Positions 1 to 15,253 of a stretch of 15,739 nucleotides of DNA are shown in pieces. How positions within the stretch are numbered: the stretch's first letter is position 1; each line of letters begins with the position of its first letter. A program made the translations under genes and the position numbers. The DNA lies in contig JBBIJB010000015.1 of NCBI GenBank assembly GCA_037446215.1, positions 1 to 15,739 on the forward strand, read 5' to 3'. The notes under the pieces are model-generated. The model was not told where the DNA came from. It worked only from the letters and a program-made list of their open reading frames with translations, and searched no databases. This DNA comes from Armatimonadota bacterium (GTDB lineage: Bacteria; Sysuimicrobiota; Sysuimicrobiia; Sysuimicrobiales; Humicultoraceae).

Positions 1-877
1 CGGAAGACCCCCCGACTATCAGGGCCGCCCCTAGCCATAGCCGTGTGGAGACCAGCTCCAGGTGGCGACCCGACACGAGCGGAGACAGCAGCAGGACGAT
101 CGGCACCGAGACCTGTGTCAAGGCCAGAGCCACCGAGATCGGTACCAGGTCGACCGCCATCCACCTGGCCCAGGTCGCAAGCCCAACCAGCACCGCCGCG
201 GCCACCCTGAACGCCGCGTCTTCGCCGGCGGGCCGCCGAAGGTGGCCCGGCTTCCTGGGCCTGACCAGCAGGATCAGGGCCAAGAGCGCGGCGCACCCCC
301 AGAGCCCCGCCGTCACCCCCAGCAGGGGTGAGTCGAGCCCCTCCAACCCGTGCCTGATGAAGAGCGGGCTGATCGCCCAACAGGTGGCGGCACCGATCCC
401 GTACATAGATGCCCGCCACCCCGTGGCGATGTCCCGAACGGGGCGGGGATCGCGGGCCGGGGCTGAGATCACGTAGACGCCGCTCACCACCACGACCACG
501 CCCAAGAGGACTGGAGGTGACGGCACCTCCGCGAGGAGCAGGGCGGCAAGCACCGTCGCGAAGACGGGCGTGGTGCTCAGGAGCGGGCTGGTGCGCGCCG
601 CGCCAATCCGCTTCTGGCTGGCATTGAGCAGCGTCCATCCGAGCAGGAAGTGGAAGAAGCTGGCCAGGAAGAAGTGGAGCAGAGCGGAAGGCGGCGCCCG
701 CCAGATGCGCCCCGGCTCATCGGTAACCAGCGCTATCGCCGAGAGCACCAGCGCGCTTCCCAGCAGCAGGGAGAAGGTCGAGGGGAGCGCGTCCGCTTCC
801 TTGACGGCGCGCCGGTTGAGGGATTGGAAGAGCCCGAATCCCGCTCCCGATGCCAGGGCCCATAGCGCTCCGCTCAT
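1..877 (-). CDS. EamA/DMT family transporter (3' end outside window; absent from the ORF track)
   Basis: Manual translation from ATG at 877, which overlaps the TGA of the upstream gene (ATGA): MSGALWALASGAGFGLFQSLNRRAV...FFHFLLGWTLLNASQKRIGAARTSPLLSTTPVFATVLAALLLAE...YGIGAATCWAISPLFIRHGL...LWLGAALIVGGSS. The frame is open for 292 codons to the window edge, with about 10 hydrophobic segments in two EamA-like repeats. Confidence 0.88.
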   Translation of the reverse strand, partial: MSGALWALASGAGFGLFQSLNRRAVKEADALPSTFSLLLGSALVLSAIALVTDEPGRIWRAPPSALLHFFLASFFHFLLGWTLLNASQKRIGAARTSPLLSTTPVFATVLAALLLAEVPSPPVLLGVVVVVSGVYVISAPARDPRPVRDIATGWRASMYGIGAATCWAISPLFIRHGLEGLDSPLLGVTAGLWGCAALLALILLVRPRKPGHLRRPAGEDAAFRVAAAVLVGLATWARWMAVDLVPISVALALTQVSVPIVLLLSPLVSGRHLELVSTRLWLGAALIVGGSS

Positions 878-1812
878 TGCGGCACACGGTTCACAATCCG
901 CCGATGTGCGAACGCCGAGATGGTCTCCATGGCGCTTGCCATAATCCGGCCGGCGGCTTCACCGGTATACCATCCTATGTGAGGGGTGACCACGACGTTG
1001 AGGCCTACAAAGTCGTGGTAGGCCTGCGGCTCCCCCTCCAGTACGTCGAGCCCTGCCCCGCCCAGGTGCCCGCATCGAAGCGAGTCGATCAATGCCGCCG
1101 TGTCCACTACCGCGCCCCGCGAGGTATTGACCAGGTAGGCCCCCCTCTTCATCTCGGCCAGCCGCCCGGAATCGATCAGATGATGCGTTGACGGTGTAAG
1201 GGGCACGTGCAGTGTCAGTGCGTCGCTCGCGGCCAGCACCTCCGGGAGTGCGGCGTAGGAGAACCCGAGACGGCGCGCCGCATCCAGGTCCTCCACCGTG
1301 TCGCAGGCTATCACCCTCATCCCGAAGCCATGAGCGATGCGGACGCTGCAGCGGCCGACGCGCCCGGTGCCGACCACACCCATCGTCTTGCCGAAAAGCT
1401 CCGCGCCCATCAGCCCGTCGGCGCGGAAACCTCGCTCGCCGCGGTAGCGTTCGTCGGCCTGCACGATCTTCCGCGCGACCGCAAGGAGAAGCCCGAACGC
1501 CAGCTCGGCTATCATATTGGCGCCGTAGTCCGGCACGTTGCAGACTACGACACCCCGGCTGGACGCCTCGGCGACGTCTATGTGGTCGAACCCCACCGAT
1601 CGAGTGACGATGCAGCGAAGCCGCGGGAGGCGCTCGAGGATCTCACGCGTGATCTTCCCGAATCGATCGCGGATGCACAGCACATCGGCCCCCGCGGCAG
1701 CTTCCACTATCTCGTCGGACGTCACCAGAGGCCCGAAGGTACGGACCGTACAGCCTTCCAACCGGATCGACTCCCGGTCTTCGAAGGTGAGGTCGGCGAA
1801 GGTCACGAGCAT
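874..1812 (-). CDS. D-isomer-specific 2-hydroxyacid dehydrogenase (NAD-binding)
   Basis: RSVGFDHID and NVPDY motifs, Rossmann GTGRVG followed by an Asp, LHVPL, NTSRG (Arg), DVLEGEP (Glu), TPHIG (His). GGAGGGAG lies upstream of the ATG. Confidence 0.92.
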   Translation of the reverse strand: MLVTFADLTFEDRESIRLEGCTVRTFGPLVTSDEIVEAAAGADVLCIRDRFGKITREILERLPRLRCIVTRSVGFDHIDVAEASSRGVVVCNVPDYGANMIAELAFGLLLAVARKIVQADERYRGERGFRADGLMGAELFGKTMGVVGTGRVGRCSVRIAHGFGMRVIACDTVEDLDAARRLGFSYAALPEVLAASDALTLHVPLTPSTHHLIDSGRLAEMKRGAYLVNTSRGAVVDTAALIDSLRCGHLGGAGLDVLEGEPQAYHDFVGLNVVVTPHIGWYTGEAAGRIMASAMETISAFAHRRIVNRVPQ

Positions 1813-1857
1813 GACCGGTCGTTGCTCCCTCCACGGCGGCCCGGGCCGGCCGGCGGC

Positions 1858-3081
1858 CTAGCGCGGATTACAGACCATCAGATCCTCGTACGGCCAGGTA
1901 GTGATGATCTTGTGGCCGTCCCGGGTCACGACCACCTGAACCTCGATCCTGGCGCCGTCGCCGCCCTCACCGTAGAAGGTCTCGAGGGCGAAGTGCATGC
2001 CCTCCTCCACAACGACCGGGTGGTCGAGCGAGTAGGCGCGCGAGATCCACGGCTTCTCGTGGTGGCTGAGGCCTATGCCGTGCCCGAGCGCGAGGGCGTA
2101 GGCGTCGGCCTCGTTGGCATAGCCGAGCTCCTTGGCCGAGGGCCACCGGGCCGCTATATCGGCCGTTGTGATCCCGGGCCTCACTGCCTCCACGGAGGCC
2201 TGGAGCCATTCGAGTGCGCGCCTGTAGACGCTCCTCTGCCGCTCGGTGGCACGGGTCACGGCGAATGTCCTGTAGTAGCAGGTGGCATACCCCAGGTAGT
2301 GGCTCATGATGTCGATGTAGACGAGCTCGCCGGGCCTTATCATCCGATCTGAATAGTCATGCGGATGGGGATTGCTTCTGGGGCCCGAGACGCAGTTGAT
2401 GCCGCTGATCCGATCGGCACCGTGCTCGATCAGCCACCCGTATATCTTCCCGACTACCTCGCACTCGCGGACACCGGGACGGATGAAGTCGAAGACCTCG
2501 CTGTAGACGCCGTCGGCCAGCGACGCCGAGAGCTCGATGATCTTGATCTCCTCGGGCGACTTCACCATCCGAGCGTCGAACATCGCGTCGTAGCCGTTGC
2601 GCACGCTGAGCCCGGCGTCCCGCAGGGCGTCCCACAGGTACATCTCCATCTCGTCCACGCCGACAGGCATGTCCGCAACGCCGTGCTCCGAGAGAATCGC
2701 CTTGATCTCCGCCACCGCTGCCCGCGAGAGGGCCACGTTCACAGGCCTGACATTGGCGCCGCGGTTCCAGCCGACCGCCGGCCGGATGTTCTCGGGCTTC
2801 AGCCAGGGGCACAGCTCGCGCTTCACGACTGTGGCGGTTCCGACCTCGAACAGGATCGGGTCGCCGCCCCGCGGCAGCAGGCACCAGCGGAAGTACTTGC
2901 CCCTCGCCCACTCGGCAAGGTGGGTTCCGGTGATGTAGCGGATGTTGTCCTGATCGAAGCAGAGAAGCGCACCAAGATCGTACTTCTCCATCTGGCGGCG
3001 CGCGCGTTCGAGCCTGTAGTTCCGAAGCGCCTCGAAATCCACCCTCTGCTCGACGTCGGTCGCCATCGGTCCCAGCGTCAT
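1858..3081 (-). CDS. M24 (pita-bread fold) Xaa-Pro peptidase/creatinase-like hydrolase, atypical metal site
   Basis: Creatinase_N-like N-terminus (NIRYITG), RMVKSPEEI, IRPGVRECEV, IDIMSHYLGYATCYYRTF, GHGIGLSHHE, FALET, ARIE. GGAGGAGG RBS upstream. Confidence 0.88.
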   Translation of the reverse strand: MTLGPMATDVEQRVDFEALRNYRLERARRQMEKYDLGALLCFDQDNIRYITGTHLAEWARGKYFRWCLLPRGGDPILFEVGTATVVKRELCPWLKPENIRPAVGWNRGANVRPVNVALSRAAVAEIKAILSEHGVADMPVGVDEMEMYLWDALRDAGLSVRNGYDAMFDARMVKSPEEIKIIELSASLADGVYSEVFDFIRPGVRECEVVGKIYGWLIEHGADRISGINCVSGPRSNPHPHDYSDRMIRPGELVYIDIMSHYLGYATCYYRTFAVTRATERQRSVYRRALEWLQASVEAVRPGITTADIAARWPSAKELGYANEADAYALALGHGIGLSHHEKPWISRAYSLDHPVVVEEGMHFALETFYGEGGDGARIEVQVVVTRDGHKIITTWPYEDLMVCNPR

Positions 3082-3100
3082 GCCGTCCTCCTCCCGGCCG

Positions 3101-4072
3101 TCAGCGCGGCGGCCATGCGACGGTGTAGATGTGCCTGCCCCCGCGCAGCGGTCCCCGCACGAGATCGTCCACCTGCTCCTGCGTGAGGCGTTGGGTCACG
3201 AGCGAGGCCTCCGGGAGCTTGCCCGGCGGGAACCGCTCCATGATGTCGTCGTGCAGCCTCACCATGTAGTCGAGAAGCGCCTCAAGCCCGGGGCGCGCCT
3301 TCTCCGCGTCCGCGAGCGTTGCGCGGCCCACCACCCCTTCCGGGTTCCCGACCACTTCGATGGTCCCAAGCCCGGCATGCCCGTACCAGGGGATGGCCCG
3401 CTGGTATGCGTTGGCGGCCGAGTCCACGTGACCGGGCGGCAGGAAGCCGCGGAACTCCGTATCGACTGCGTCCTTCATTCGGATCATCTCCGGGAAGAGG
3501 GCTAGAGAGAACGAGGTCTCGCACTCGTCGGCGTGAACGAAGGGCGTCTCAAAAGGCCCTCCGTGCGCCTTGTCTTTGACATGGGGCTGGATCGCGTAGT
3601 ACCAGTTGAGGTTGACCAGCACGGCGGGGACCTGGTAGCGCTTCGCGAACCTGTGGATTGCGGTCGGGATCACGTACTCCTGCCCATGTCCGTTGAGGAG
3701 GATCTGCTTGCGGAAACCGGCGTTCCAGAAGCCCGCGATGATGGAGCTGAGGTAGGCCGTGAATGTGTCCTCGTCAACTGGGATCGTGCCCGGCATGCCG
3801 ATGTGGTGGTATGGGTGACTTCCGAACCACACCGGCTGTGAGACCGTGCATCCTACCCTCCTGGCCACGGCCTCTGCCATCCTGGTCACCAGGAAGGTAT
3901 CCTCTCCGTAGCAGGCGTGGGGGCCGTGAGCCTCTGTGCTCCCCACCGGGATGATGATCAGGTCGTCCGCCGCCAGGCGGGCTTCTACCTCCTTCATCGT
4001 CATGTTCTGGAAGTAGACGCCGTCCGCCGCGTCGAGGTGGCCGCCCTTGGGCGGGATCTCCCAGTTGCCCAT
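3101..4072 (-). CDS. iolN: Creatininase-family protein, IolN-like 3-dehydro-scyllo-inosose hydrolase
   Basis: Creatininase metal motifs PVGSTEAHGPH..GED, NGHG and HADECETS. Long blocks (GVYFQxMTMK, EDTFLVTRMAE, HPYHHIGMPGT, IAGFWNxGFRKQILLNGHGQE, PEGVVGxATLA) match my recollection of Thermotoga IolN. Start is placed at ATG 4072 after GGAGGAG; an alternative in-frame ATG is at 4087. Confidence 0.8.
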   Translation of the reverse strand: MGNWEIPPKGGHLDAADGVYFQNMTMKEVEARLAADDLIIIPVGSTEAHGPHACYGEDTFLVTRMAEAVARRVGCTVSQPVWFGSHPYHHIGMPGTIPVDEDTFTAYLSSIIAGFWNAGFRKQILLNGHGQEYVIPTAIHRFAKRYQVPAVLVNLNWYYAIQPHVKDKAHGGPFETPFVHADECETSFSLALFPEMIRMKDAVDTEFRGFLPPGHVDSAANAYQRAIPWYGHAGLGTIEVVGNPEGVVGRATLADAEKARPGLEALLDYMVRLHDDIMERFPPGKLPEASLVTQRLTQEQVDDLVRGPLRGGRHIYTVAWPPR

Positions 4073-4090
4073 CTCTCCTCCCGTCATGCG

Positions 4091-5158
4091 CTAGGGCCTG
4101 ATGACGACCTTGATCGTCCCTCCCACGCGGTTTGTGAACGTCTCAAAGGCCCGGTTGATCTCGTCGAGCGGGAAGGTGTGCGTAATCAGCGGTGCCACCG
4201 ACAGCCTCCCGTCCGCCATCAGCGGAACGGCCCGCTCCATGCACCACATCCCCTCGGCCTTGGGCCCCGTGATCTCCAGGTTCCACTGGACGATCCTGTT
4301 GAGCTGAAGCGTCACCGGCTCGTGGTAGATGCCGTTGTAGGAGATCCTTCCGCTCTTCCGGGCGATCTCGAGGGCCTCGGCCGCGGGCCCTGCCTGGCCC
4401 GTGCACTCAACCACGAGGTCGGCCCCAATCCCGCCGGTAAGCTCCATCACGGCCTCGCGGAGCGGCGTGGTCCTGACGTTTATCGTTACGTCCGCGCCCA
4501 TCCGGCGACCCACCAGGAGACGGTCGTCCCGCGTTCCCGCCAGGATGATCCTGCCCGCACCGAGGATCCTGGCCAGGCCGGCGGACAGCAGGCCGATCGC
4601 GCCCGGGCCGGTGATCACCACGGTCTCTCCCGGCCGCACCCCGCCTATCCTCTCATACCCGTACAGGACGGTCCCGGCCGTGGTCAGCACCGTGCCTTCC
4701 TCGAACGAGATGCTGTCGGGAAGCAGGTGGAGCGTGTTCACGTGGCAGGCCGCGTACTCCGCGTATGCTCCGTTGCTGCAGAAGCCGTAGTGGCGATGCC
4801 CCTTCTCCGGCCTCCCGTAGTTCAGGCATGTCGTGTACAGACCTCTCAGGCAGTTGACGCAACGACCGCATCCCTTGTGGGGCTCGACTGCCACCCTGTC
4901 GCCCACCTCGACCTCGGTAACATCGGGGGCCACGGCTTCCACGGTACCCGTGAACTCATGGCCGGGTATGAACTCCCCGAGCGGGGGGTGGTTGGGCCAC
5001 CCCCGCGCGACAATCGCGGGATCGCTGCCGCAGATGGCCACGGCGCGCACGCGGACGAGGGCCTCGCCCGGCCCTGGAACCGGCACCCGCACCTCGGTCA
5101 GGCGCAGGTCGCCGTAGCCGTGGAGCACGGCGGCCTTCATCGTGCCAGGTGTGACCAT
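4091..5158 (-). CDS. Zn-dependent medium-chain dehydrogenase/reductase (sorbitol/threonine dehydrogenase-like)
   Basis: ICGSD, GHEFTG, structural Zn motif CGRCVNCLRGLYTTC, GPGAIG, C-terminal KVVIRP. Confidence 0.92.
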   Translation of the reverse strand: MVTPGTMKAAVLHGYGDLRLTEVRVPVPGPGEALVRVRAVAICGSDPAIVARGWPNHPPLGEFIPGHEFTGTVEAVAPDVTEVEVGDRVAVEPHKGCGRCVNCLRGLYTTCLNYGRPEKGHRHYGFCSNGAYAEYAACHVNTLHLLPDSISFEEGTVLTTAGTVLYGYERIGGVRPGETVVITGPGAIGLLSAGLARILGAGRIILAGTRDDRLLVGRRMGADVTINVRTTPLREAVMELTGGIGADLVVECTGQAGPAAEALEIARKSGRISYNGIYHEPVTLQLNRIVQWNLEITGPKAEGMWCMERAVPLMADGRLSVAPLITHTFPLDEINRAFETFTNRVGGTIKVVIRP

Positions 5159-5175
5159 CTACACTCGCCCTCCCC

Positions 5176-6216
5176 TCATACGGCAGGTTCCAGGACTACC
5201 TTCACGGCCTCGGCGGATCGGGTCAGATCGAACCCGCGCTCCCACTCCTCCAGGGGCAGCACGTGGGTGACGATCTGGGCGGGGCGCACCGCGCCACGTG
5301 AGAACAGGGAGAGAGCCCGCTCCCAGCTGCTGTGCGTGGAGCTGTAGCTGAACCGGACCTCCAGCGCCTTGAACAGGGCCTCGCGATAGGGAACCTCGAT
5401 GTGGTCGGAGGGCGGCTGCCCGAGCACGCAGACCCTCCCGATCCGGCGAGCCAGACTGAACCCCTGTGCCACGGCGGCGGGCGAGCCCGAGAGCTCAACG
5501 ACGAGGTCGGCCCCTTCCCCTGCGGTCAGTGACATCACGAGGCCGGCCAGATCGTCCTGCTCCACGTTCACGACGTGGTCGATGCCGAGCTCTCGCGCCT
5601 TTGGCAGCCTGACACGCTCGTCGCGGCCGACTCCGGCAATGGCCACGCTGGAGGCCCCTGCCGACTGCGCCATCCTGGCCGCCACCAACCCTATGGGGCC
5701 GCAGCCGAGCACGAGAACCATGTCCTCGGGCAGGACTCGCGCGCGCTCCAAGACGCCGTGGACTGCGACGGCGGCCGGCTCGGTCAGGGCGGCCTCGATG
5801 AAGCTCAGCCCCTCCGGAATGCGATGCAGCAACCAAGCCGGCACCCTGACGAACCCGGCGAAGCCTCCGTCCGACCCGTAGCCCGGGGCGCGTTTGTGGG
5901 CACAGGCAAACGCGTTTCCGGTGAGGCACAGGCGACACCGCCCGCAGGCGCCGAAGTGCTGCTCGCTCACGACGCGATCGCCCTCCGACCAGCCGGTGAC
6001 CGCGGGGCCCAGAGCCACTACCTCCCCGGCGAACTCGTGGCCGAGGACCACCGGAGGGCTGTACGGGTGCTGGTCGTCCTGGATCCTGAGGTCGCTGCCG
6101 CATATGCCACAGGCCCTGACCCGAACCAGAACCTCACCGGGGCCAGCCTGCGGCATCGGTAGGTCGCATAGCTCCAACAGCCCGCGGCCGCGCCCCGTCT
6201 TGACCAGTGCCCGCAA
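5176..6216 (-). CDS. Zn-dependent medium-chain dehydrogenase/reductase (iditol/sorbitol dehydrogenase-like), TTG start
   Basis: The likely start is TTG at 6216 (MRALVKTGRG..., 346 aa), 6 nt after GGGAGGGAG and just past the E2 stop. Motifs CGICGSD, GHEFAG, CGRCRLC..C, TEP, GCGPIG. The 540-aa ORF-track call overlaps E2 and is over-extended. Confidence 0.9.
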   Translation of the reverse strand: MRALVKTGRGRGLLELCDLPMPQAGPGEVLVRVRACGICGSDLRIQDDQHPYSPPVVLGHEFAGEVVALGPAVTGWSEGDRVVSEQHFGACGRCRLCLTGNAFACAHKRAPGYGSDGGFAGFVRVPAWLLHRIPEGLSFIEAALTEPAAVAVHGVLERARVLPEDMVLVLGCGPIGLVAARMAQSAGASSVAIAGVGRDERVRLPKARELGIDHVVNVEQDDLAGLVMSLTAGEGADLVVELSGSPAAVAQGFSLARRIGRVCVLGQPPSDHIEVPYREALFKALEVRFSYSSTHSSWERALSLFSRGAVRPAQIVTHVLPLEEWERGFDLTRSAEAVKVVLEPAV

Positions 6217-6242: not shown

Positions 6243-7418
6243 CTAGCCGAGAAGCGCGAGCGGCTCCTCGATCAGGCCCGCGAGGGCCTCGAGGAAGCGA
6301 GCCGCGCGAGCGCCATCTACCACGCGGTGATCGCACGACAGGCTCAGCGTCATCACGGGCCTTACCGCCGGCCCGCCCCCCACGGCGACGACGCGGGGGG
6401 CGATCCTCCCCACGGCGAGGATCGCCGCCTGGGGTGGGTTGATCACGGCGTCGAAGGCGTCGACCCCGTACATCCCCAGGTTGCTGACGGTGAAGGTCCC
6501 GCCGCTCAGGTCCTCCGGGCGCAAGGCTCCAGCGTTCGCCCTGGCGATCAGATCCTTCCTGCGCCTCGATATCTCCTCGATCCCCAGGCGGTCGGCACCG
6601 TGGATCACCGGAACTACGAGGCCGTCGTCGATCGCGGCGGCGATGCCGACGTTGATCTCTCCAGACTGGATGATCGTGCCGTTCCTCCAGGTGGCGACAA
6701 GCCTGGGGTGCTCGCGCAGGGCAGCGGCAACCAGCCGCACGAGCAGGTCGGTGAAGGTGAGATCCGAGCCCAGGCTCTTCTTTGCCGATTCGCGCCATGC
6801 CGTCAACCGGCCGGCTTCCACGTCGCGTCTGAGGTAGAAGTGCGGTGCGCTGGTCCAGCTCTGCGTGGTTCGCTCCGCCATCAGCCGCCAGACCGTGCCG
6901 ACCGTGATCTCGGCTGAATCCCCCGGCGGCCCAGAGGCACCCGGGCCGCGAACGGAAGCCCGGGCCGCGGATGCCGTGGCCGGAGCGGTCCCGGCGGCGC
7001 GCGCCTGTATGAAGGCCATCACGTCCGCCCTGTCTATCCGACCTCCCCTGCCCCGGACCTGCGCGAGGTCGACGCCGTGCGCGGCCGCGACCCGCCTCGC
7101 CAGGGGGCTCGCAGCGATCCTTCCGGCACCGGCCACAGCGACTGGTGCGTGGGCGGCGCCGCCCGCGCCCAGCTCTTCGCCCGGGGCGGCGATCAGCGCT
7201 ATCACCATGCCCACCGGCACCACATCGCCATCGCCGGAAGTGACACGCGCGAGAGTCCCGGTGGCAGGTGCCTCGACCTCAACGGTGACCTTGTCGGTCT
7301 CTATCTCGATGAGGGGCTCGCCCTTGGCTACCGGATCACCCTCCCTCTTGAGCCACCGCACGATGCGGCCGGTCTCCTGGGACATGCCAAGCGCAGGCAT
7401 CACTACATCCGTGGCCAT
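6243..7418 (-). CDS. Dihydrolipoamide acyltransferase (E2) of a 2-oxoacid/acetoin dehydrogenase-type complex
   Basis: Single lipoyl domain (EIETDKVTVE), peripheral subunit-binding domain (ASPLARRVA..GVDL..GRI..DV), Ala-rich linkers, GGTFTVSNLG, catalytic DHRVVDG. Confidence 0.95.
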   Translation of the reverse strand: MATDVVMPALGMSQETGRIVRWLKREGDPVAKGEPLIEIETDKVTVEVEAPATGTLARVTSGDGDVVPVGMVIALIAAPGEELGAGGAAHAPVAVAGAGRIAASPLARRVAAAHGVDLAQVRGRGGRIDRADVMAFIQARAAGTAPATASAARASVRGPGASGPPGDSAEITVGTVWRLMAERTTQSWTSAPHFYLRRDVEAGRLTAWRESAKKSLGSDLTFTDLLVRLVAAALREHPRLVATWRNGTIIQSGEINVGIAAAIDDGLVVPVIHGADRLGIEEISRRRKDLIARANAGALRPEDLSGGTFTVSNLGMYGVDAFDAVINPPQAAILAVGRIAPRVVAVGGGPAVRPVMTLSLSCDHRVVDGARAARFLEALAGLIEEPLALLG

Positions 7419-7439: not shown

Positions 7440-8465
7440 TCAGGCACGCCCACAGAGGGCCCTGGCCTTTGCCGCTACACGCTCACCCGTGGGAACCGTG
7501 AGATCCTCTAGGGCGGGCGAGAAGGGCACCGGCACATCCATGGCCCCCATCCGCGTGACCGGCGCGTCCAGGTAGTAGAAGGCTCCTTCGCCTATGACCG
7601 ATGCGATCTCCGCCGTGACCCCGTGCTGCTCATGGCCCTCATCCAGGACTATGGCCCGCCCGGTCTTCCGGGCGGACTCCACGAGGGTGCCTCTATCCAG
7701 AGGCGCTATCGTCCGCGGATCGATGACCTCGGCGCTAATCCCCTCCCGCTCGAGGATCGAGGCGGCATCGAGCGCAACCTGTACCATGCTGCTGGTGGCG
7801 ACCAGCGATATGTCGGCGCCCTCGCGCTTGATCTCGGCTACACCGAAGGGGATCGTGTACTCCTCCACGGGCACCGGGCCCCTCGCCTGAAACATCAGCT
7901 TGTCCTCGAAGAAGAGGACAGGGTTGTCGTCACGGATGGCCGCCTTGAGCAGTCCCTTCGCGTCGTAGGGCGTGGACGGCATGGCGACCTTCAACCCCGG
8001 GATGTGCGCGAACCAAGCGTGCAGGCTCTGGCTGTGCTGGGCGGCTGAGCGCCTGGTTGCGCCCATCGTGGCCCGAACGACCAGCGGTACTCGGAGGCGA
8101 CCGCCGGACATGTAGTGCACCTTTGCGGCCTGGTTGACTATCTGGTCCATGGCGAGCGTGAGGAAGTCGCCGAACATGATGTCGGCGACCGGCCTAAGCC
8201 CTGTCATCGCGGCCCCGACCGCTACCCCAGTGAAGCCGGCCTCGGAGATCGAAGTGTCGATGACCCTGTCTTGTCCGAACTCCTCGACCAGGCCTGAGAG
8301 CACCTTGAAGGGGGTGCCTGCCTCTGCCACATCCTCTCCAAGGATGATCACGCGCGGATCACGGCGCATCTCCTCTGCGAGCGCCTCCCGCACGGCCTGC
8401 GCGAATGTGATCTCGCGGGTTGCCTTCCCCGAGCTGGTAGCTGCCACCGGGCTAGGCGTAGACAT
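7440..8465 (-). CDS. TPP-dependent dehydrogenase E1 beta subunit (AcoB/PdhB-like)
   Basis: LGEDV, DTSISEAG, IMFGDF, DQIVNQAAK, AAQHSQS, DAKGLLKAAIRDDNPV. Start is moved to ATG 8465 (GAGGTG upstream, 14-nt overlap with the E1 alpha end). Confidence 0.94.
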   Translation of the reverse strand: MSTPSPVAATSSGKATREITFAQAVREALAEEMRRDPRVIILGEDVAEAGTPFKVLSGLVEEFGQDRVIDTSISEAGFTGVAVGAAMTGLRPVADIMFGDFLTLAMDQIVNQAAKVHYMSGGRLRVPLVVRATMGATRRSAAQHSQSLHAWFAHIPGLKVAMPSTPYDAKGLLKAAIRDDNPVLFFEDKLMFQARGPVPVEEYTIPFGVAEIKREGADISLVATSSMVQVALDAASILEREGISAEVIDPRTIAPLDRGTLVESARKTGRAIVLDEGHEQHGVTAEIASVIGEGAFYYLDAPVTRMGAMDVPVPFSPALEDLTVPTGERVAAKARALCGRA

Positions 8466-9450
8466 CTCGGTCCACCTCTTCCGGCTCCGGGTAGGGGGCC
8501 GCAAGGCCGAACTCGACCCCCGCTGCGACCTCGGCCCGGGCGCGGTTATCCAGTTCGTCCAGCACAGCCGGGTCCAGGCCGGCACCGTCTATGAGCCAAC
8601 GGCGGTGGATCTCCAGGGGGTCGCGCTCCGCCTTCCACCGCTCCTCCTCCTCCCTAGATCGGTAGTAGGAGCGGCTGATGTCTCCCACGTGATGCCCGTA
8701 GTAGCGGTAGGTGTTACACAGCAGCGCGGCAGGGCCTTCGCGGCGCCTCGCTCTTCCCACCGCCTCCTCCGAAGCGGCATAGACGGCGCGTACGTCCTGT
8801 CCATCGACCTCCCAGACCGGGATCCCGAACGCCTCAGGCCTGGCTCGCAGAGAACCCGCCGCGGTCTCGGTATACAACGTGTACTCGCTGTACAGGTTGT
8901 TCTCGCACACGTAGATTACGGGCAGCTTCCACAGCGACGCCAGGTTCATCACCTCGTAGAGGAGTCCCTGACCCAGCGCTCCTTCCCCGAAGAAGCAGAC
9001 CGAAACGCGATCGTCACCCAACGCCTTGGCCGAGAGCGCGGCGCCTGTCGCGATTCCCGCGCTTCCGCCCACTATCGCGTTGGCGCCCAGGTTCCCCGTG
9101 GCAGGATCGGCTATGTGCATCGAACCGCCCTTCCCTTTGCAGTACCCAGCGGCCTTTCCGAGGAGTTCCGCAAACATCCGATCGGGCGAGGCTCCCTTGG
9201 CCAGGCAGTGGCCGTGGCCCCGGTGGGTGCTCGTGATGTAGTCCCGCGGGCCCAGAGCCATGCAAACCCCGACAGCCACCGCTTCCTGACCCGTGCACAG
9301 ATGCGCCAGCCCCGGCATCTTCGCCGTGATGTACAGCTGATTCACGCTCTCCTCGAAGGCGCGGATCGTCGCCATCAACCCGTAGGCAGCCACCCACCGG
9401 TCCAGGTCGGCCCGGGCCGGCTTCCTTCGCGCACCTGCTCTATCTCCCAT
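8452..9450 (-). CDS. TPP-dependent dehydrogenase E1 alpha subunit (AcoA/PdhA-like)
   Basis: HLCTGQEA, STHRGHGH, GKGGSMH, GANAIVG, TPP motif FFGEGA...CENN, TYRYYGHH. Confidence 0.94.
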   Translation of the reverse strand: MGDRAGARRKPARADLDRWVAAYGLMATIRAFEESVNQLYITAKMPGLAHLCTGQEAVAVGVCMALGPRDYITSTHRGHGHCLAKGASPDRMFAELLGKAAGYCKGKGGSMHIADPATGNLGANAIVGGSAGIATGAALSAKALGDDRVSVCFFGEGALGQGLLYEVMNLASLWKLPVIYVCENNLYSEYTLYTETAAGSLRARPEAFGIPVWEVDGQDVRAVYAASEEAVGRARRREGPAALLCNTYRYYGHHVGDISRSYYRSREEEERWKAERDPLEIHRRWLIDGAGLDPAVLDELDNRARAEVAAGVEFGLAAPYPEPEEVDRDVYA

Positions 9451-9490: not shown

Positions 9491-10375
9491 CTAATAGCCC
9501 GCCAGGCCCGCCATCCGGGCCAGCACCTTGAACACGGAAGCGAAGTCCTGCCGGGACAGGCCCATGCCCCTCGCCGAGGTCAGCATCTCATTGGCCACGG
9601 CTGTCGTCGGAAGCGGAACCTCCAACTCCCGGCCCAACTCGAGCGCGAGCTGAAGGTCCTTCTGCATCATCGTTACGTCGAACCAGGCCTCCTCAGGCAT
9701 CTCGAGGACGAACGGACCTCGGTAGCGCAGCATCGGGGAGGCCATGACGCTGTTCAGCAGGACCTTGACCGCGGTCGCGCGGGGGACCCCGCGCTTCTCG
9801 GCGAGCAGCACGCCCTCGCTGAACGCCAGCATCTGGACCGCCAGGCTCAGGTTGCTCGCGACCTTCAGGAGGACGGCCTGGCCGTTCTCACCCACATAGT
9901 CAACGGTGGGGCCGATTGCCGTCAGGACCGGCAGGACGCGGTCGAACACGTCTCGATCGCCGCCCACCATTATCGACAGCCGTCCGGCCTCGAGGGTGGC
10001 GACACTTCCCGACACCGGCGCGTCGAGCATTCGCGCGCCCAGAGCCTCTACGCGGGTTGCCAGCTCCGCGCTTGCGCGCGGGCTGGCGGTACTCATGTCT
10101 ATATACACGCTGCCCGGTCGCAGGCCGGCGAGTACTCCGTCGGGTCCGTCGGTGATCTCTTGGAGCGCCTTGGTGTTTGTGACCATCGAGAAGACCACAT
10201 CAGAGGCCTCTGCGACGGCGCGGGGTGTAGGCGCCAGCCGCATACCTGCCTCCTCAAGCCACTTGGCCTTCTCCCTGGTCCGGTTGTAGCCCACGACCTG
10301 ATGCCCGGCGTCCAGGAGACGCTTGGCGATCCGCCCTCCCATGACTCCCAGTCCCACATAGCCCAGTTGCTGCAT
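9491..10375 (-). CDS. Beta-hydroxyacid dehydrogenase family oxidoreductase (3-hydroxyisobutyrate dehydrogenase/tartronate semialdehyde reductase-like)
   Basis: GLGVMG, YNRT, IDMST, DAPVSGS, catalytic K in LKVASN, F..MMQKDL. GAGGAG RBS next to the regulator stop. Confidence 0.93.
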   Translation of the reverse strand: MQQLGYVGLGVMGGRIAKRLLDAGHQVVGYNRTREKAKWLEEAGMRLAPTPRAVAEASDVVFSMVTNTKALQEITDGPDGVLAGLRPGSVYIDMSTASPRASAELATRVEALGARMLDAPVSGSVATLEAGRLSIMVGGDRDVFDRVLPVLTAIGPTVDYVGENGQAVLLKVASNLSLAVQMLAFSEGVLLAEKRGVPRATAVKVLLNSVMASPMLRYRGPFVLEMPEEAWFDVTMMQKDLQLALELGRELEVPLPTTAVANEMLTSARGMGLSRQDFASVFKVLARMAGLAGY

Positions 10376-10385
10376 CCGCTCCTCC

Positions 10386-11126
10386 TCAGCTCTCCTCGTT
10401 CACAGTGCCCGGAGCGGAGCCGGCCTCTGCCGCGCTCTCCCTGAGCACGTGCCTGAAGTCCCTCTCTACCCTGGCTAGGTGCTCAAGCATCCTCTGCCTG
10501 GCGCCATCGGCGTTGCCCGCGGCCACCGCCTCCAGGATCAGGCGGTGCTGCGCTATCGACTGATGGGGGCTCCCGGGAATGTGGAAGATCGATCCGAGAG
10601 CCCGGTGCAGCAGATCTCTTATCGCCTGCATGACGTGAACGACGACTCTGTTGCGCGTCGCCTCCGCAACCGCGAGGTGAAACTGCAGGTCGGCTTCGAT
10701 GTACTCCTCCTGTGAGCCCAGTCCCGCCGACATCTCCTCGATGTGGCTGTTCATCCGTGCCATGTCTGCCTCGGTCCGTCGCAGGGCTGCGAGCGCGGCT
10801 GTCTCGGCCTCGACTATCTTCCGCGCCTCGTAGAGCTCTCCGAGGTTCGTCTCCCTTGCCGCGAGGAGGAACCGCAGGGAGTCGCTCAGGGGGTTCCAGT
10901 AGTCGGCGACGACGAAGGCCCCCTTCCCCGCGAATCCTATAAGGCCCCGCGACTCAAGCATTCTGAGCGCCTCTCGCACGGAGGACCTCCCGACGCCGTA
11001 GGCCTGCGCGAGATCCCGCTCGGTGGGCAGCGGCTCTCCCGGCTTCAGATGGCGCTCCCGAATCTGCCCCGAGAGGTCCTGTGCGACAAGCTCGTAGAAC
11101 TTGCTCCGTTTCAGCGTCGCAGGCAT
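10386..11126 (-). CDS. GntR family, FadR-subfamily transcriptional regulator
   Basis: wHTH LKPGEPLPTERDLAQAYGVGRSSVREAL. FCD domain with EARKIVE, DLQFH, N and QH motifs. Confidence 0.95.
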   Translation of the reverse strand: MPATLKRSKFYELVAQDLSGQIRERHLKPGEPLPTERDLAQAYGVGRSSVREALRMLESRGLIGFAGKGAFVVADYWNPLSDSLRFLLAARETNLGELYEARKIVEAETAALAALRRTEADMARMNSHIEEMSAGLGSQEEYIEADLQFHLAVAEATRNRVVVHVMQAIRDLLHRALGSIFHIPGSPHQSIAQHRLILEAVAAGNADGARQRMLEHLARVERDFRHVLRESAAEAGSAPGTVNEES

Positions 11127-11144
11127 TGGATGACCCCGCTCAAG

Positions 11145-13007
11145 CTAGCTCATCACCCGCGGGCCGGCCGCCCTCCTTCTCTGCCAGAAGTAGATAGCAA
11201 CGAATATCGCGATGCCCGACAGGTCGGTGGCCAGCCCCGGGATGAAGGTCAGGACCGTGGCGACCGCCAGCAGCACCCACTCGACAAGATTCGTGCGCAC
11301 CAGGAAGAACCCCGTGCTCATTATCGAGAACGCCACCGTTCCCACCACCGCGGACACCACAGCCCACGCGTTCTCGGCCGGGGTCCCGTTGAACAGGATG
11401 TGCGTATACGCGAATAGCACGGGCATCACGTAGATCAGCTTCGCGAACCGGAAGCTGTTCCAACCGGTCCGCCAGGGATCTGCGTCGGCGATCGCCGCCG
11501 CCGTGTACGCGCCGAGGGCCACCGGAGGCGTGATGTTGGAGTCGAGGCTCAGCCAAAAGATGATGAGGTGCGCCGCGATTAGCGGCACACCCAACTCTGC
11601 CAGCGCGGGCGCGGCGGCAACGGCCACCACAAGGTAGGCCGCCGTTATCGGCATACCCATCCCGAGGATGAAGGATGCTATGGCCACAAGCAGCAGCACC
11701 ATAGGGAGGCTCTGGCCTGCCAGCGTCAGCATTATCGTCGAGAACCTGATGCCAATCCCCGTGAGCGCGAGTATCCCGATGATGATGCCGACGGCTCCTG
11801 TCGCCGCGCCGACGAAGACAGAGGCCTTCCCGCCGTCCACCAGGGCTTGCCACACCTGGGCAGGCCCCATCCGGGTCTCACGGCGCGCCCAACTCACCAG
11901 GATCGTGGCCAATATCGCGTGGGTGGCGGAGCGGCCCGGCGTATAACCCTCGACGAGGGATGCCACCAGGACCACAATGGGCAAGAACATGTGCCAGCCG
12001 CCTCGAACCACCTCCGACAAACGCGGCAGCTCATCCTGGCTCAACCCGCGCAGCCCCAACTTCCGGGACTCAAGGTAGACCATGATCCCCACGGACAGGA
12101 AGAAGAGCATCCCCGGGACAATGGACATCTTCACTATCTGTACGTAGGGGATGCCTGTGATCTCGGCCATGATGAACGCGCCGGCGCCCATCACGGGCGG
12201 AAGGATCATCCCGCCCGTGGACGCGGAGGCCTCTACCGCCGCCGCTATGTGCGGTGGGAAACCGGTCTTCTTCATCAAGGGAATGGTGATCGACCCCGTG
12301 GTTGCCGTGTTGGCAATTGGGCTGCCGTTGATCGATCCCAGCAGCGCGCTGGACACCACGGCGACCTGGGCAGGCCCTCCGGCGATCCGACCGAAGAGCG
12401 CCATCGAGATATCGACAAAAACCTTCGCCACGCCCGCCCGCAGCATGAAGGCCCCGAAGGCGACGAAGGGTAGTATGAACGTGGCCAGGACCTCGGCCAT
12501 CACTCCGAAGAGGCCCTCCGAGGTCAGGTATACGTACTCGATCACCCGCCGGAAGGTGAAGCCCCTATGCCCAATGAGGGGAGGGAGGTGGTTTCCGAAG
12601 AGGGCATAGGCTATAGACAGGAGGGCGATCACCGCGAGGGGGCGTCCCAACACCCGACGGGCGACCTCCACGGCCAGTGCAGTCGCCACAAGGCCCATGT
12701 AGAAGTCCAGGCGCGTGTAGGCGCCAGCCCTGTAGGCGAGCGCCTCGTGTAGGACGATCCAGTACCCCACGCCCACCACCGCGCCCACTATCATGGCGAT
12801 GTCGGCCGGCCCGGGAGCGGATTTCGGCGACCGCTTCCATCCTCGGTAGAGAAGCAGGGCGGCGACCAGGCTGAAGAGCAGCGCGATCCCCCTGTGGTGC
12901 TGTAAAGAGGTCATGCCGAACGCGGCCGTTCTGAGGTAGTACAGGACTGTGGAGACCAGCAGGAGCTGGGCGACTAGGTCCCATGATCGGCTGAGGCTCC
13001 GGTTCAT
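11145..13007 (-). CDS. TRAP transporter fused 4TM/12TM permease (TAXI type)
   Basis: 620-aa highly hydrophobic protein with GGPAQVAVVSS, GSINGSPIAN, TIPLMKK, EASASTGGMILPPVMGAGAF, LGMGMPITAAY and ITPPVALGAY motifs. Confidence 0.93.
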   Translation of the reverse strand: MNRSLSRSWDLVAQLLLVSTVLYYLRTAAFGMTSLQHHRGIALLFSLVAALLLYRGWKRSPKSAPGPADIAMIVGAVVGVGYWIVLHEALAYRAGAYTRLDFYMGLVATALAVEVARRVLGRPLAVIALLSIAYALFGNHLPPLIGHRGFTFRRVIEYVYLTSEGLFGVMAEVLATFILPFVAFGAFMLRAGVAKVFVDISMALFGRIAGGPAQVAVVSSALLGSINGSPIANTATTGSITIPLMKKTGFPPHIAAAVEASASTGGMILPPVMGAGAFIMAEITGIPYVQIVKMSIVPGMLFFLSVGIMVYLESRKLGLRGLSQDELPRLSEVVRGGWHMFLPIVVLVASLVEGYTPGRSATHAILATILVSWARRETRMGPAQVWQALVDGGKASVFVGAATGAVGIIIGILALTGIGIRFSTIMLTLAGQSLPMVLLLVAIASFILGMGMPITAAYLVVAVAAAPALAELGVPLIAAHLIIFWLSLDSNITPPVALGAYTAAAIADADPWRTGWNSFRFAKLIYVMPVLFAYTHILFNGTPAENAWAVVSAVVGTVAFSIMSTGFFLVRTNLVEWVLLAVATVLTFIPGLATDLSGIAIFVAIYFWQRRRAAGPRVMS

Positions 13008-13084
13008 CGGCTGGCCGGCCCCACTTCCTCGATGGGCGTGATGCCGGAGTGCGCCCCCGACGGCAGGCGTGTGGAGCTCATCAT
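13004..13084 (-). other. Possible 26-aa mini-ORF bridging the TAXI binding-protein and permease genes
   Basis: Minus strand reads TAG(stop)GAGCGCC ATG ATG AGC...CGA TGA = MMSSTRLPSGAHSGITPIEEVGPASR*. An AGGAG RBS precedes it and its TGA overlaps the permease ATG. Confidence 0.3.
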
Positions 13085-13091
13085 GGCGCTC

Positions 13092-14105
13092 CTACCGCGC
13101 CCTGATCCGCTCTGGGATCTCGAGGCCTACGGAGTTCCAGTGGGCCTCTGCACCCTTGTGAAGGGGAGTAGTCACTCCCTGCAACGCTCTCCTTGATGTC
13201 ATGTCCGATGACGCGCTGTGGACCCTGAGCATGTGACCGTGGCCGTCACGGCTGTAGCCCGCCTCCACGAGCCTCTGTATCAGAGCCGCGGAGGTCCTGG
13301 CGTTCGTGAACCACATCGCCGGAATCCCAAGCGCCGACACGTTCTCGGTAACGCCCGCGTAGGCGCCGCCCGGTATCAGGTACCGTGAGAAGTAGGGATA
13401 TGCGGTGAAGAAGTCGGTCCTCGTGAGCGGGCCGTAGATGTCTAGGAAGTGCACCGGCTTGGCAATCGCGGCCTCGATGGTGACGCGATCGGGGTAGGGG
13501 CCTGTCCAGAAGTAGGCGTCTGCCCTGCCCTCTGCCATCGCTGCTCCGGCCGCCGCGCCCAATAGCGGAACCCTTGTCATCCGCTCCCAGACACCGAGCT
13601 TCCTGAACACGCGCTCCGCGCTGGCGAAGGTCCCCGAGCCCGGCGTTCCGACCGCCACCCTCTTGCCGGCGAGGTCCTCCACGGTCCGGATCCCGCTGTC
13701 GCGGAACGTCACGACGTGTGCGACGCCCGTGAATATCATCCCAATCGCCCTGATGTTCGTCTGCGGGGTGCCGCGAAACGCGTCGATCCCGTTGAAGCCC
13801 TCGTGCAGGTCCGAGGCGAACGCGATCCCCATCTCGGCCTCGCCCGCGTTGACCCGACGGACGTTCTCCACCGAGCCGCCGGTTGCTGCTACGGAGACAT
13901 CCACGCCGGAGACGGCGCGTGAGAGATACGTGCCCAGGCCGGTGGCGAAGATCCCAAAGACCCCGCCGGGGGGGCCGCCCAGCATCGTCACCCTCTCCAG
14001 GCCAGGGCCTGCCGCTCCTGGCACTGCCGCGAACGTGCCGAGCAAGAGCGCCATCAACGCGGTGACTCCGAGCCGTACGAATCGCCGATCCAGTCTGGTC
14101 ACCAT
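13092..14105 (-). CDS. TAXI family TRAP transporter solute-binding subunit
   Basis: N-terminal signal peptide, GGPPGGVF, ATGGSVENV, DLAGKRVAVGTPGSG, PLHKGA. GGAGG RBS 7 nt upstream. Confidence 0.94.
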   Translation of the reverse strand: MVTRLDRRFVRLGVTALMALLLGTFAAVPGAAGPGLERVTMLGGPPGGVFGIFATGLGTYLSRAVSGVDVSVAATGGSVENVRRVNAGEAEMGIAFASDLHEGFNGIDAFRGTPQTNIRAIGMIFTGVAHVVTFRDSGIRTVEDLAGKRVAVGTPGSGTFASAERVFRKLGVWERMTRVPLLGAAAGAAMAEGRADAYFWTGPYPDRVTIEAAIAKPVHFLDIYGPLTRTDFFTAYPYFSRYLIPGGAYAGVTENVSALGIPAMWFTNARTSAALIQRLVEAGYSRDGHGHMLRVHSASSDMTSRRALQGVTTPLHKGAEAHWNSVGLEIPERIRAR

Positions 14106-14172
14106 GGAACGTCCTCCCCCGGGCCTTTAGGATCAACTCGAGTCGGGCGACTTCCAACTCCGGGACGATGCG

Positions 14173-14196
14173 ATCAGACAATCGGACCAACAGACC
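14173..14196. promoter_or_regulatory. Three imperfect tandem 8-bp repeats, candidate FadR/GntR operator
   Basis: ATCAGACA-ATCGGACC-AACAGACC (minus strand GGTCTGTT GGTCCGAT TGTCTGAT), about 70-90 nt upstream of the TAXI start, in the largest internal intergenic gap. Confidence 0.45.
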
Positions 14197-14299
14197 GATG
14201 GCTGGTTCTTCGGCGCGCCTCGCGGACATCCTGCATCCGGGCCCACGGTCCGCTGTCGGGCTCCGCGCACTTCAGGGCGAAGCCTTGCCTGCTTGGGTT

Positions 14300-15253
14300 C
14301 TAGCGGACCGGCCTGTCCGTCCGGCGGGTGAGCAGACCCAGGACCTCCTGCCGGGTGGTCCAGGGGACATCCCCCCAGAAGGTCTGGGAGAGAGATGCGA
14401 GTGCGGCTCCATACCTCAGGCCCGCAGCGAGATCCCCTTCCAGGGCGCCCCATATGAGCCCCGCGGCAAACGCGTCTCCTCGCCCGATGGGATCGACCTC
14501 GGCCCCCGGGATCGCGGCCTCGCTGTGCACGCCCTCACCATCTGCCAGATGGGCGCCTTCGACTCCTGCGGTGACCACAGCCGCCCCGGCGCGGACGCGT
14601 TCACGAAGCTGAACCGCCAGCTCACGCGGGGCACCGTGGAGATCGAAGACCTCACGGGCGTCCTCCTGTGTGGCGATTACCAGGTTGATGCCGTCGAGCA
14701 AGGGCATGAGCACGTCCCGCGCCTTGTTGGCGGACCAGAGCTTGCGCCGGTGGTTCACGTCGAGAGAGGTCGCCACCCCCGCGGCCCTTGCCTCGGAGAG
14801 GAACCTCTCGGCCGAGCGGGCACATGGGTCGCCCAGCGCCGGAGTGATCCCGGTGGTGTGGGCCCATCTGGCCTGGCCGATGCTGGTTAGGTCGATCTCC
14901 TCAGGACGGAGCGTGCTGAAGGCGGAGCCGCTCCTGTCGTAGTAGACCGTGACGCCCCGGGGAGATGGTGCCTGTTCGAGGAAGTAGAGGCCTGTCCGGC
15001 CGCCTGTTGCCCACACCACCGCCGAGGTGTCCACTCCGTGGCGCCGCAGGTCGCCGGCGATCCGGCGGCCCAGGGGATCGTCTACCAGTTTGGAGATCCA
15101 CGACGTCCGAAACCCCATTCTGGCAAGCGCCACCGTCACGTTTGCCTCGGAGCCCGCCGACCTCATCTCCAGGATGTGCGCGGACTCCAGGCTCTCACCG
15201 TGTGGAGCGGCAAGCCTGATCATCGCCTCGCCAAGGGCAACCAGGTCGTACAT
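14300..15253 (-). CDS. PfkB/ribokinase-family sugar kinase, 2-keto-3-deoxygluconate kinase-like
   Basis: LGEAMI, AGSEANV, RTGLYFLE, YYDRSGSAFS, TGITPAL, DVNHRRKLWS, VDPIGRGDAFAAGLI. Confidence 0.9.
   Translation of the reverse strand: MYDLVALGEAMIRLAAPHGESLESAHILEMRSAGSEANVTVALARMGFRTSWISKLVDDPLGRRIAGDLRRHGVDTSAVVWATGGRTGLYFLEQAPSPRGVTVYYDRSGSAFSTLRPEEIDLTSIGQARWAHTTGITPALGDPCARSAERFLSEARAAGVATSLDVNHRRKLWSANKARDVLMPLLDGINLVIATQEDAREVFDLHGAPRELAVQLRERVRAGAAVVTAGVEGAHLADGEGVHSEAAIPGAEVDPIGRGDAFAAGLIWGALEGDLAAGLRYGAALASLSQTFWGDVPWTTRQEVLGLLTRRTDRPVR

Follow-up and report, generated by a model that had tools for sequence, protein, structure and literature searches.

A gene array in an Armatimonadota bacterium that joins a variant IolN pathway to a conserved E1/E2-M24 unit

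We analyzed a window of 15,739 nucleotides from an Armatimonadota bacterium (assembly GCA_037446215.1, contig JBBIJB010000015.1), which is the leading 15.7 kb of a 39,963-bp contig in a genome bin of 2.16 Mb that is 91% complete. A listing of open reading frames together with Pfam and NCBIfam scans placed 14 minus-strand genes at positions 2 to 15253, separated by 3 to 45 nt or overlapping, with the exception of gaps of 84 nt (between the genes for the TAXI solute-binding protein and its permease) and 194 nt (between the kinase and TAXI genes). A divergent molybdopterin oxidoreductase gene upstream of the kinase gene marks the 5' limit of the array, and the contig start truncates its 3' end. 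Two blocks of genes can be told apart. Block A comprises two Zn-dependent medium-chain dehydrogenases and the cyclic diketone hydrolase IolN in the order MDR2-MDR1-IolN, with a PfkB kinase resembling 2-keto-3-deoxygluconate (KDG) kinase, a D-2-hydroxyacid dehydrogenase, and an EamA transporter; block B comprises a TAXI-TRAP importer, a GntR regulator, an HIBADH-family dehydrogenase, the E1alpha/beta subunits of a thiamine pyrophosphate (TPP) enzyme, an M24 protein, and an E2 acyltransferase. The nearest named records are Armatimonadota bins, and an assembly chimera was excluded, since the gene order is repeated in the independent assemblies L009, L146, L147, and L231 to L234. A sequence-only reading of the window had described 14 co-oriented genes, mostly with short gaps or overlaps, with their own importer, regulator, kinase, and DMT transporter, an IolN-like hydrolase, and an atypical M24 enzyme; all of these observations were confirmed.

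The first gene of the array (14300 to 15253) encodes a PfkB-family sugar-acid kinase (PF00294, 137.4 bits), which scored 307.8 bits on the KDG/2-keto-3-deoxygalactonate kinase model NF041332, under the cut-off of 440. It is followed by a TAXI-family TRAP solute-binding protein (13092 to 14105; TIGR02122, 196.6 bits against a cut-off of 84.35; nearest structures 8u79 and 1us4), a fused DctQM-type TRAP permease (11145 to 13007; TIGR02123, 602 bits against 320.65), and a FadR-type GntR/FCD regulator (10386 to 11126; PF00392 and PF07729) with weak best matches to NanR, LldR, and PdhR. The HIBADH-family beta-hydroxyacid or semialdehyde dehydrogenase (9491 to 10375; PF03446 and PF14833) has 3pef, 3pdu, 3cky, and 1vpd as nearest structures and reached 228 bits on a tartronate-semialdehyde reductase model, under the cut-off of 340.75. 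Next come the TPP-dependent E1alpha (8452 to 9450; PF00676, 238.6 bits), E1beta (7440 to 8465; PF02779 and PF02780), which overlaps E1alpha by 14 nt, and an E2 dihydrolipoyl acyltransferase with lipoyl, E3/E1-binding, and catalytic domains (6243 to 7418; PF00364, PF02817, and PF00198). MDR2 (5176 to 6216) and MDR1 (4091 to 5158) both match PF08240 and PF00107. The start codons of MDR2, a TTG at 6216 behind a GGAGG box, and of E1beta, an ATG at 8465, were corrected from a reading of the DNA. The creatininase-fold IolN (3101 to 4087) and the M24 "pita-bread" enzyme (1858 to 3081; PF00557, 135.6 bits against 23) precede a D-isomer-specific 2-hydroxyacid dehydrogenase (874 to 1812; PF02826 and PF00389), for which every equivalog match fell under its cut-off and the closest structures are those of glyoxylate reductases and phosphoglycerate dehydrogenase. 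The array ends in the incomplete EamA/DMT transporter gene (2 to 877; PF00892, 101 bits).

The 194-nt spacer between the kinase and TAXI genes contains GTCYGA repeats (14173 to 14195, minus strand) that form a candidate GntR operator, the sole such site in the window. Related motifs, GTCTGA(C)..TCAGAC or GTCGGA, were also found upstream of the TAXI gene at L130 to L133, L146, and L147, and all gaps longer than 45 nt sit at the 5' end of the array, beside this operator-like motif common to other block B loci. We infer that the 14 genes, which form one co-directional array, probably constitute one GntR-controlled operon. Block A probably shares its promoter with the rest of the array, because no larger gap lies downstream. 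Promoter and terminator scans did not rise above chance (1 vs 1.7 and 4 vs 4.7). A perfect 7-bp inverted repeat with a 7-nt spacer (ATGTGGG, CCCACAT) at 15378 to 15398, upstream of the kinase gene, may be an operator or part of the divergent gene.

The IolN protein matches the curated model NF041098 over its full length (residues 1 to 307; 536.7 bits against a cut-off of 245) and is 80 to 87% identical to homologues mainly from Chloroflexi. We fetched 80 IolN loci from species-representative genomes and compared their neighbors. Those with an IolN at least 80% identical to that of the window, designated type A, number 21 and come from Armatimonadota and mostly from Chloroflexi/Anaerolineae. 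An adjacent MDR1 orthologue is present at all 21 and an adjacent MDR2 orthologue at 20; a PfkB kinase and a 2-keto-3-deoxy-6-phosphogluconate (KDPG) aldolase occur at 12 each, EamA at 11, the D-2-hydroxyacid dehydrogenase at 8, and an IolO-like gene at only 2. The opposite picture emerged at the 42 loci whose IolN is no more than 70% identical, with no MDR1 or MDR2 orthologues and an IolO-like gene at 22. Because of these partner genes of its own and the rarity of the IolO-like gene, type A is a separate IolN pathway variant without the epimerase, apparently ending in KDG-type kinase and aldolase steps. MDR1 scored 199 bits on the IolM model NF041097, under the cut-off of 450, and MDR2 scored 247 bits on the Tdh model and 208 bits on the IolM model, each below cut-off; on threonine dehydrogenase models both proteins score higher than, or about as high as, on NF041097.

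In Thermotoga, IolM is a scyllo-inosose 3-dehydrogenase, IolN converts 3-dehydro-scyllo-inosose to 5-keto-L-gluconate, and IolO is the 5-keto-L-gluconate epimerase. The oxidative inositol pathway of Thermotoga maritima is made up of these enzymes and IolG (Rodionova et al. 2013, as cited in PMC5931981). The window resembles that route in that its IolN passes the curated model, adjoins MDRs that resemble IolM as well as threonine dehydrogenase, and shares its cluster with a PfkB kinase, and the cluster of the Chloroflexi relatives ends with KDG-type kinase and aldolase genes. Unlike it, the window cluster has neither an IolO epimerase nor a GFO-type IolG, contains two MDRs, both far under the IolM cut-off, instead of one IolM, adds the D-2-hydroxyacid dehydrogenase and EamA, and has TAXI-TRAP as its only dedicated importer. 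Work on L-glucose catabolism in Luteolibacter (LguG/C/B/H/E; PMC12632266) indicates how the IolN product 5-keto-L-gluconate can reach KDG, followed by KDG kinase and aldolase; the steps given there need a C-4 epimerase, a reductase, and altronate dehydratase, all of which are absent from the window. The KDPG aldolase, mannonate dehydratase, and altronate dehydratase families were not found in the 91%-complete window genome, and the finish of 5-keto-L-gluconate as in Thermotoga or Luteolibacter would therefore be unavailable to it.

Elsewhere, on contig C55, the window genome has a canonical IolN-IolO pair. That second IolN is 60% identical to the window IolN and adjoins a bona fide IolO (332 bits against 300) and ABC transporters, and C55 is probably the Thermotoga-type inositol locus of this genome. 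Around the pair (L007, 1752 to 3542) lie two ABC importers, a PFK-family kinase, a Cgl0159-like aldolase, and two genes that resemble, respectively, a phosphodiesterase and hydroxypyruvate or 2-oxo-tetronate isomerase. At L007:516-1755 on the plus strand, an ABC ATPase domain is split across two overlapping open reading frames in different frames (516 to 1067 and 832 to 1755), possibly by a frameshift or an assembly error.

The distribution of block B was followed through its E1alpha in a phylum survey of 94 genomes, all of one order, 93 of them besides the window genome. Window-type E1alpha was delimited by 64 to 88% identity and at least 446 bits, the next tier being at 52% identity or less. 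It is present in 48 of the 93 other genomes, and IolN of any type in 67. Sixteen genomes, all but two at least 91% complete, carry window-type E1alpha (64 to 74% identical) without any IolN. We fetched 20 E1alpha loci for gene order. The unpublished genomes G017 and G025 are counted in these tallies, but none of the conclusions depends solely on them. In 19 loci HIBADH is found upstream, as is GntR in 15 and often TAXI-TRAP. M24 directly follows E1beta in 19; after M24 comes E2 in 14, the contig end in 2, and other genes in 3. A further group of genes, block C, frequently follows block B and consists of EamA, Amidohydro_2, an FrsA-like alpha/beta-hydrolase, a second M24 in which most metal ligands are no longer present (E-Q-H-Q/E-G), a cupin, and a CoxL-type molybdenum hydroxylase (Mo-hydroxylase). 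Where IolN is absent, the neighbors of block B are amidohydrolases, aldehyde dehydrogenase (ALDH), a bicupin, an extradiol-dioxygenase-like gene, an FAA-hydrolase gene, and a Mo-hydroxylase. The E1/E2-M24-HIBADH-GntR-TAXI unit thus predates IolN and has a much wider distribution. At one metagenome contig (L156:1424-5055, minus strand), a set of genes divergent from block B encodes GntR, a PF04199 cyclase, a cupin, a short-chain dehydrogenase, and a 3-hydroxyacyl-CoA dehydrogenase, a combination that we take to resemble anaerobic phloroglucinol degradation.

The window E1 and E2 share the general makeup of pyruvate dehydrogenase (PDH) or other 2-oxoacid dehydrogenase complexes and of AcoABCL complexes: a heterotetramer-type E1alpha/beta with a TPP domain, an E2 with lipoyl-lysine, subunit-binding domain, and DHRxxDG motif, and an E3 encoded elsewhere. 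In E2 the lipoyl D42-K43 and the catalytic D363-H364-R365..D368-G369 are invariant in 22 orthologues. Unlike a PDH, E1alpha (TIGR03182, 315.8 bits against 393.85) and E2 (314.7 against 445) score under the equivalog cut-offs for PDH; E1beta alone passes, on a subfamily model (NF006667, 400.4 bits against 321). Unlike the AcoABCL complex, the match to the AcoC-type E2 model NF011457 (95.4 bits against 307) covers only the lipoyl domain (residues 2 to 141), and block B differs from both in usually having M24 between E1beta and E2 and HIBADH in front. A second E1alpha/E1beta/E2 set, 35/51/42% identical to that of the window, lies on contig C24 and outscores it on PDH models (C24 E1alpha, 381.8 bits). 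No E3 (dihydrolipoyl dehydrogenase) is encoded in the window, and the single genomic copy is on C24, as is LipA. Because the higher-scoring set, the only E3, and LipA share that contig, the window E1/E2 is a specialized PDH-like paralogue that would have to borrow the C24 E3. We rejected the idea that it is the housekeeping PDH on the same grounds.

The M24 enzyme can be aligned to the DMSP lyase DddP from end to end and to prolidases across the catalytic domain. Alignment to the prolidase 5cdl and DddP 4s00 placed its metal positions at D257, C268, H334, E367, and E380, with the second, bridging Asp replaced by Cys. Every one of 93 full-length relatives from the two subtypes, the window protein included, shows this D-C-H-E-E pattern, and two truncated copies have D-C-H. 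To the group formed by prolidases (5cdl), DddP (4s00, 4rzy, and 4b28), and the ectoine hydrolase DoeA (6twk), the protein shows full-length similarity that includes the creatinase-type N-domain, and it retains four of the five metal ligands. It is unlike them in the Cys and in its partners, which are TPP enzymes and dehydrogenases and not peptide or osmolyte genes, and its equivalog scores are far under the cut-offs (DddP, 112.9 against 600; DoeA, 69.6 against 613). A protein-cluster search with M24 returned only generic M24 clusters.

Homologues at 70 to 82% identity to the window M24 are numerous and in other lineages are placed between E1beta and E2. Among 38 metagenome contigs with window-type M24, 14 carry window-type E1 or E2, usually in the order E1beta-(second HIBADH)-M24-E2, and 19 carry an HIBADH-like gene. 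Of 42 more distant members (46 to 56% identity), 9 lie beside E1alpha/beta and others form an M24-ALDH pair; on contig L167, GntR-M24 is followed by a split transketolase. The window lineage has no M24 between E1beta and E2 and instead carries another family member, which is 43% identical to the type of its own order and 70 to 82% identical to the members of other lineages. Because this lineage lost the usual M24 yet carries another of the family, M24 looks indispensable to block B. The recurrent partners of this M24 are TPP enzymes (E1 or split transketolase) and aldehyde or semialdehyde dehydrogenases, and because of this company we suggest that the chemistry fits an aldehyde-releasing cleavage, as in acetoin cleavage, better than plain 2-oxoacid decarboxylation. 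On the high-GC soil contigs L187 and L202 (around 9500 to 12800), a distant D-C-H-E-E M24 and an aldehyde dehydrogenase lie between proteasome subunit and Pup-ligase genes, the insert in L187 also containing an HTH-cupin regulator.

The direct fusion of blocks A and B is confined to the genus of the window, where it occurs in 6 of 8 genomes. IolN proteins at least 88% identical to that of the window were likewise found only in this genus, other IolNs of the order being 57 to 66% identical. The order B-A-C is seen in the window genome (G000), G031, G027, G033, G029, and G028, with MDR2-MDR1-IolN-PfkB-D-2-hydroxyacid dehydrogenase inserted between E2 and EamA. The window and G031 (L009) deviate from their sisters in that M24 is missing between E1beta and E2, an M24 only 43% identical to the missing type replaces PfkB after IolN, and a different PfkB heads the array; this head PfkB is only 39% identical to the one after IolN in sister genomes (L012-type). 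In G030, contig C40 (L230, around 14199 to 14768) carries an IolN remnant of residues 138 to 328, the 3' 57%, with PfkB, D-2-hydroxyacid dehydrogenase, EamA, and Amidohydro_2 downstream. This locus has lost block B, the MDRs, and the 5' part of IolN; neither the MDRs nor the E1/E2 unit was found in the next 20 kb, and it looks like a deletion remnant. In G032, which is 73% complete, neither type-A IolN nor window-type E1alpha was found. The genus at first sight suggested that E1/E2 replaces KDPG aldolase, as the fused genomes lack PF01081 and only G030 has it; we dropped this argument because G030 proved to carry the truncated remnant and because an above-cut-off aldolase was found in 21 of 48 E1alpha-positive and 27 of 45 E1alpha-negative genomes of the order.

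In the sister locus L009, the genes downstream of EamA are those of block C: Amidohydro_2, alpha/beta-hydrolase, second M24, cupin, and CoxL-type Mo-hydroxylase. Of the genes expected between EamA and the Mo-hydroxylase, Amidohydro_2, the alpha/beta-hydrolase, and the second M24 were not found in the 91%-complete assembly of the window genome. Its contig C141 (4218 bp) carries at 1612 to 3933 a CoxL-type Mo-hydroxylase that is 80% identical to the one terminating the L009 array.

A looser association of the two blocks extends beyond the phylum. Of 11 genomes outside Armatimonadota that carry type-A IolN, most of them named Chloroflexi or Anaerolineae, 9 also have window-type E1alpha, compared with a base rate of 12 to 13 of 151 sampled genomes (about 8%) in one such order, where type A was present in 2 of 151; the base rate comes from this one order, and the genomes compared are interrelated and partly chosen for long contigs. 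Four of the 11 (G094, G095, G096, and G098) have block B on the contig and strand of IolN, 16 to 29 kb upstream of it. The G094 supercluster (68.7 to 96.5 kb) is a run of 27 co-directional genes from GntR to KDPG aldolase. It begins with GntR, HIBADH, E1alpha, E1beta, M24, E2, a five-gene Liv-type ABC importer, EamA, and Amidohydro_2, continues with acyl-CoA dehydrogenase, alpha/beta-hydrolase, a second M24, CoxG/M/L/S, and a gene of the reductive dehalogenase family, and closes with three MDRs, IolN, PfkB, and KDPG aldolase. G096 has the same gene families in a different order. Block A genes were found as well on three unrelated contigs with window-type M24, namely, L150 (MDR1), L152 (IolN, 85%), and L158 (E2-MDR2). 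In sum, type-A IolN is almost never found without block B, whereas block B is often found without block A.

The sequence-only reading had proposed that one catabolic pathway joins all of these genes, and had suggested a search for conserved synteny of iolN, E1/E2, and M24. This interpretation is partly supported. The fused array of the genus, the co-directional Chloroflexi supercluster, and the near-constant presence of the E1/E2-M24 unit in type-A genomes speak for a functional link of the blocks; the spread of the unit to IolN-free genomes and the many type-A loci at a distance from it do not fit so simple a picture, and M24 goes with E1/E2 and not with IolN. We therefore favor, with moderate confidence, a reading in which the array is a fusion of two older units, block B acting as the lower pathway for a keto- or hydroxy-acid and block A as an optional feeder, because type A almost never occurs without B while the converse is common. 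The two Zn-dehydrogenases would turn a cyclitol or cyclitol acid into a cyclic 1,3-diketone, the ring of which IolN would hydrolyze to a keto-aldonate-type acid, as in the Thermotoga route. E1alpha/beta-E2, with the single E3 of the genome, would convert the keto- or hydroxy-acid to an acyl coenzyme A (acyl-CoA), probably freeing an aldehyde or semialdehyde to be handled by the HIBADH enzyme. Block A would thereby make inside the cell the type of acid that is otherwise imported by TAXI-TRAP. TRAP systems mainly carry organic acids, and because TAXI-TRAP is the sole dedicated importer encoded in the window, the array probably takes in a carboxylate rather than a neutral inositol as its entry substrate.

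A more novel reading, which we put forward tentatively and regard as unlikely, is that HIBADH-E1alpha/beta-M24(D-C-H-E-E)-E2 is a new TPP/lipoyl system for ketol-acid cleavage. E1 would split the HOCH2-CO-CHOH end of a keto-aldonate into an acyl-CoA and a semialdehyde that passes to HIBADH. The keto-aldonate would be imported or would come from MDR/IolN ring opening of a cyclitol or a quinate-like carboxylated cyclitol, and M24, with its Cys substitution, would be a new enzyme that is not a peptidase and prepares the substrate. With block A, this would amount to a complete route from cyclitol to CoA ester without KDPG aldolase, common to Armatimonadota and Chloroflexi. Deoxy-inositols (leading to 2,5-diketo-3-deoxygluconate) and quinate-like acids (leading to a citryl-CoA-type product) were considered as substrates and fit the gene set in part; we do not claim either.

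Several observations weigh against the two-unit reading. The 16 IolN-free genomes imply that block B needs no IolN product, and 18 of the 21 type-A loci have no window-type E1alpha or E2 within 10 kb. Window-type E1alpha was not seen in the type-A genomes G234 and G249, the completeness of which is not known, and the enrichment of A with B is indicative rather than a formal statistic. Only 14 of the 38 contigs with window-type M24 and 9 of the 42 with the distant type carry E1/E2; many of the contigs with window-type M24 are short, yet some of these that lack E1/E2 reach 9 to 11 kb, and over both sets some without E1/E2 measure 10 to 20 kb. The MDR scores are well under the IolM cut-off, and the count of the GTCYGA pattern in the window is not above chance. 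Finally, catabolic islands can cluster unrelated operons. Two or three such operons may simply lie side by side here, block A converting a cyclitol to a KDG-type acid and block B serving an imported acid unrelated to it, such as a hydroxy- or 2-oxo-acid released in the breakdown of N-heterocycles or aromatics. The independent distribution of A and B would follow directly, as would the PfkB and KDPG aldolase with which the Chloroflexi block A ends on its own account and the amidohydrolase, dioxygenase-like, and Mo-hydroxylase company of IolN-free block B. What this account leaves unexplained is the presence of block B in 9 of 11 type-A genomes, the recurrence of B upstream of A on one strand, with differing gene order in between, in the Armatimonadota genus and four Chloroflexi genomes, the block A genes beside window-type M24 on three contigs, and the lack of KDPG aldolase in the fusion-carrying genomes of the genus. 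We consider it somewhat unlikely on balance, but it retains substantial weight because 16 genomes carry block B but no IolN and no E1/E2 was found within 10 kb of most type-A loci.

Two further accounts assign E1/E2 a definite substrate. Following the scheme of the sequence-only reading, an acetoin-type complex could cleave 5-keto-L-gluconate to glycolyl-CoA and a C4 semialdehyde, the latter being reduced by HIBADH, with the D-2-hydroxyacid dehydrogenase and kinase finishing the fragments. The fused operon in most genomes of the genus, the lack of enzymes to complete the Thermotoga route, the TPP enzymes (E1alpha/beta, and the split transketolase of L167) and HIBADH or ALDH that accompany M24, and the best models of HIBADH, which are semialdehyde reductases, all agree with this. 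It is nevertheless doubtful, given that orthologous E1alpha is kept in 16 genomes without IolN, that E2 is a canonical acyltransferase and E1alpha is nearest to true pyruvate dehydrogenases, that the AcoC-type model matches the lipoyl domain alone, and that M24 has no role in the scheme. Very improbable, in our view, is that E1/E2 is a second pyruvate dehydrogenase oxidizing pyruvate released by the pathway. Its best model and structure matches are indeed the E1 and E2 of pyruvate dehydrogenase, and the regulator weakly resembles PdhR and LldR. The genome already has a better-scoring set on C24, however, from which the window set has diverged to below the PDH cut-offs; no pyruvate-forming aldolase was found in the window, nor PF01081 in the genome, and the conserved, tight embedding of M24 and HIBADH would be left unexplained.

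The finding is best described as a new IolN pathway variant and a conserved, undescribed E1/E2-M24 unit that are linked in two phyla and fused in one genus. Their joint recurrence in two phyla points to an undescribed breakdown pathway. The sequence-only reading knew of no characterized pathway with this gene set, and our literature searches did not contradict it: in open-access full text, searches on IolN and its pathway, on the gene combination, on M24 with a 2-oxoacid dehydrogenase, and on TAXI ligands turned up no paper that describes the gene set. The only IolN pathway in the literature searched is that of T. maritima, and type A represents a second, sharply separate IolN clade, the substrate and products of which may differ from the textbook case because it has its own partner genes and no IolO epimerase. 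The E1/E2-M24 unit, apparently undescribed, occurs in roughly half the genomes of one Armatimonadota order, in Chloroflexi, and in further metagenomic lineages. Knowledge of its substrate would allow the annotation of many "Xaa-Pro peptidase" and "pyruvate dehydrogenase" genes whose present names are probably wrong and could reveal a new way for subsurface bacteria to convert cyclitols or sugar acids to CoA esters. As a minor observation, the reductive-dehalogenase-family gene of the Chloroflexi supercluster (TIGR02486, 267.8 bits against 160) lies between the CoxS-like gene and the MDRs, at L016:5429-6652 and L019:5387-6610.

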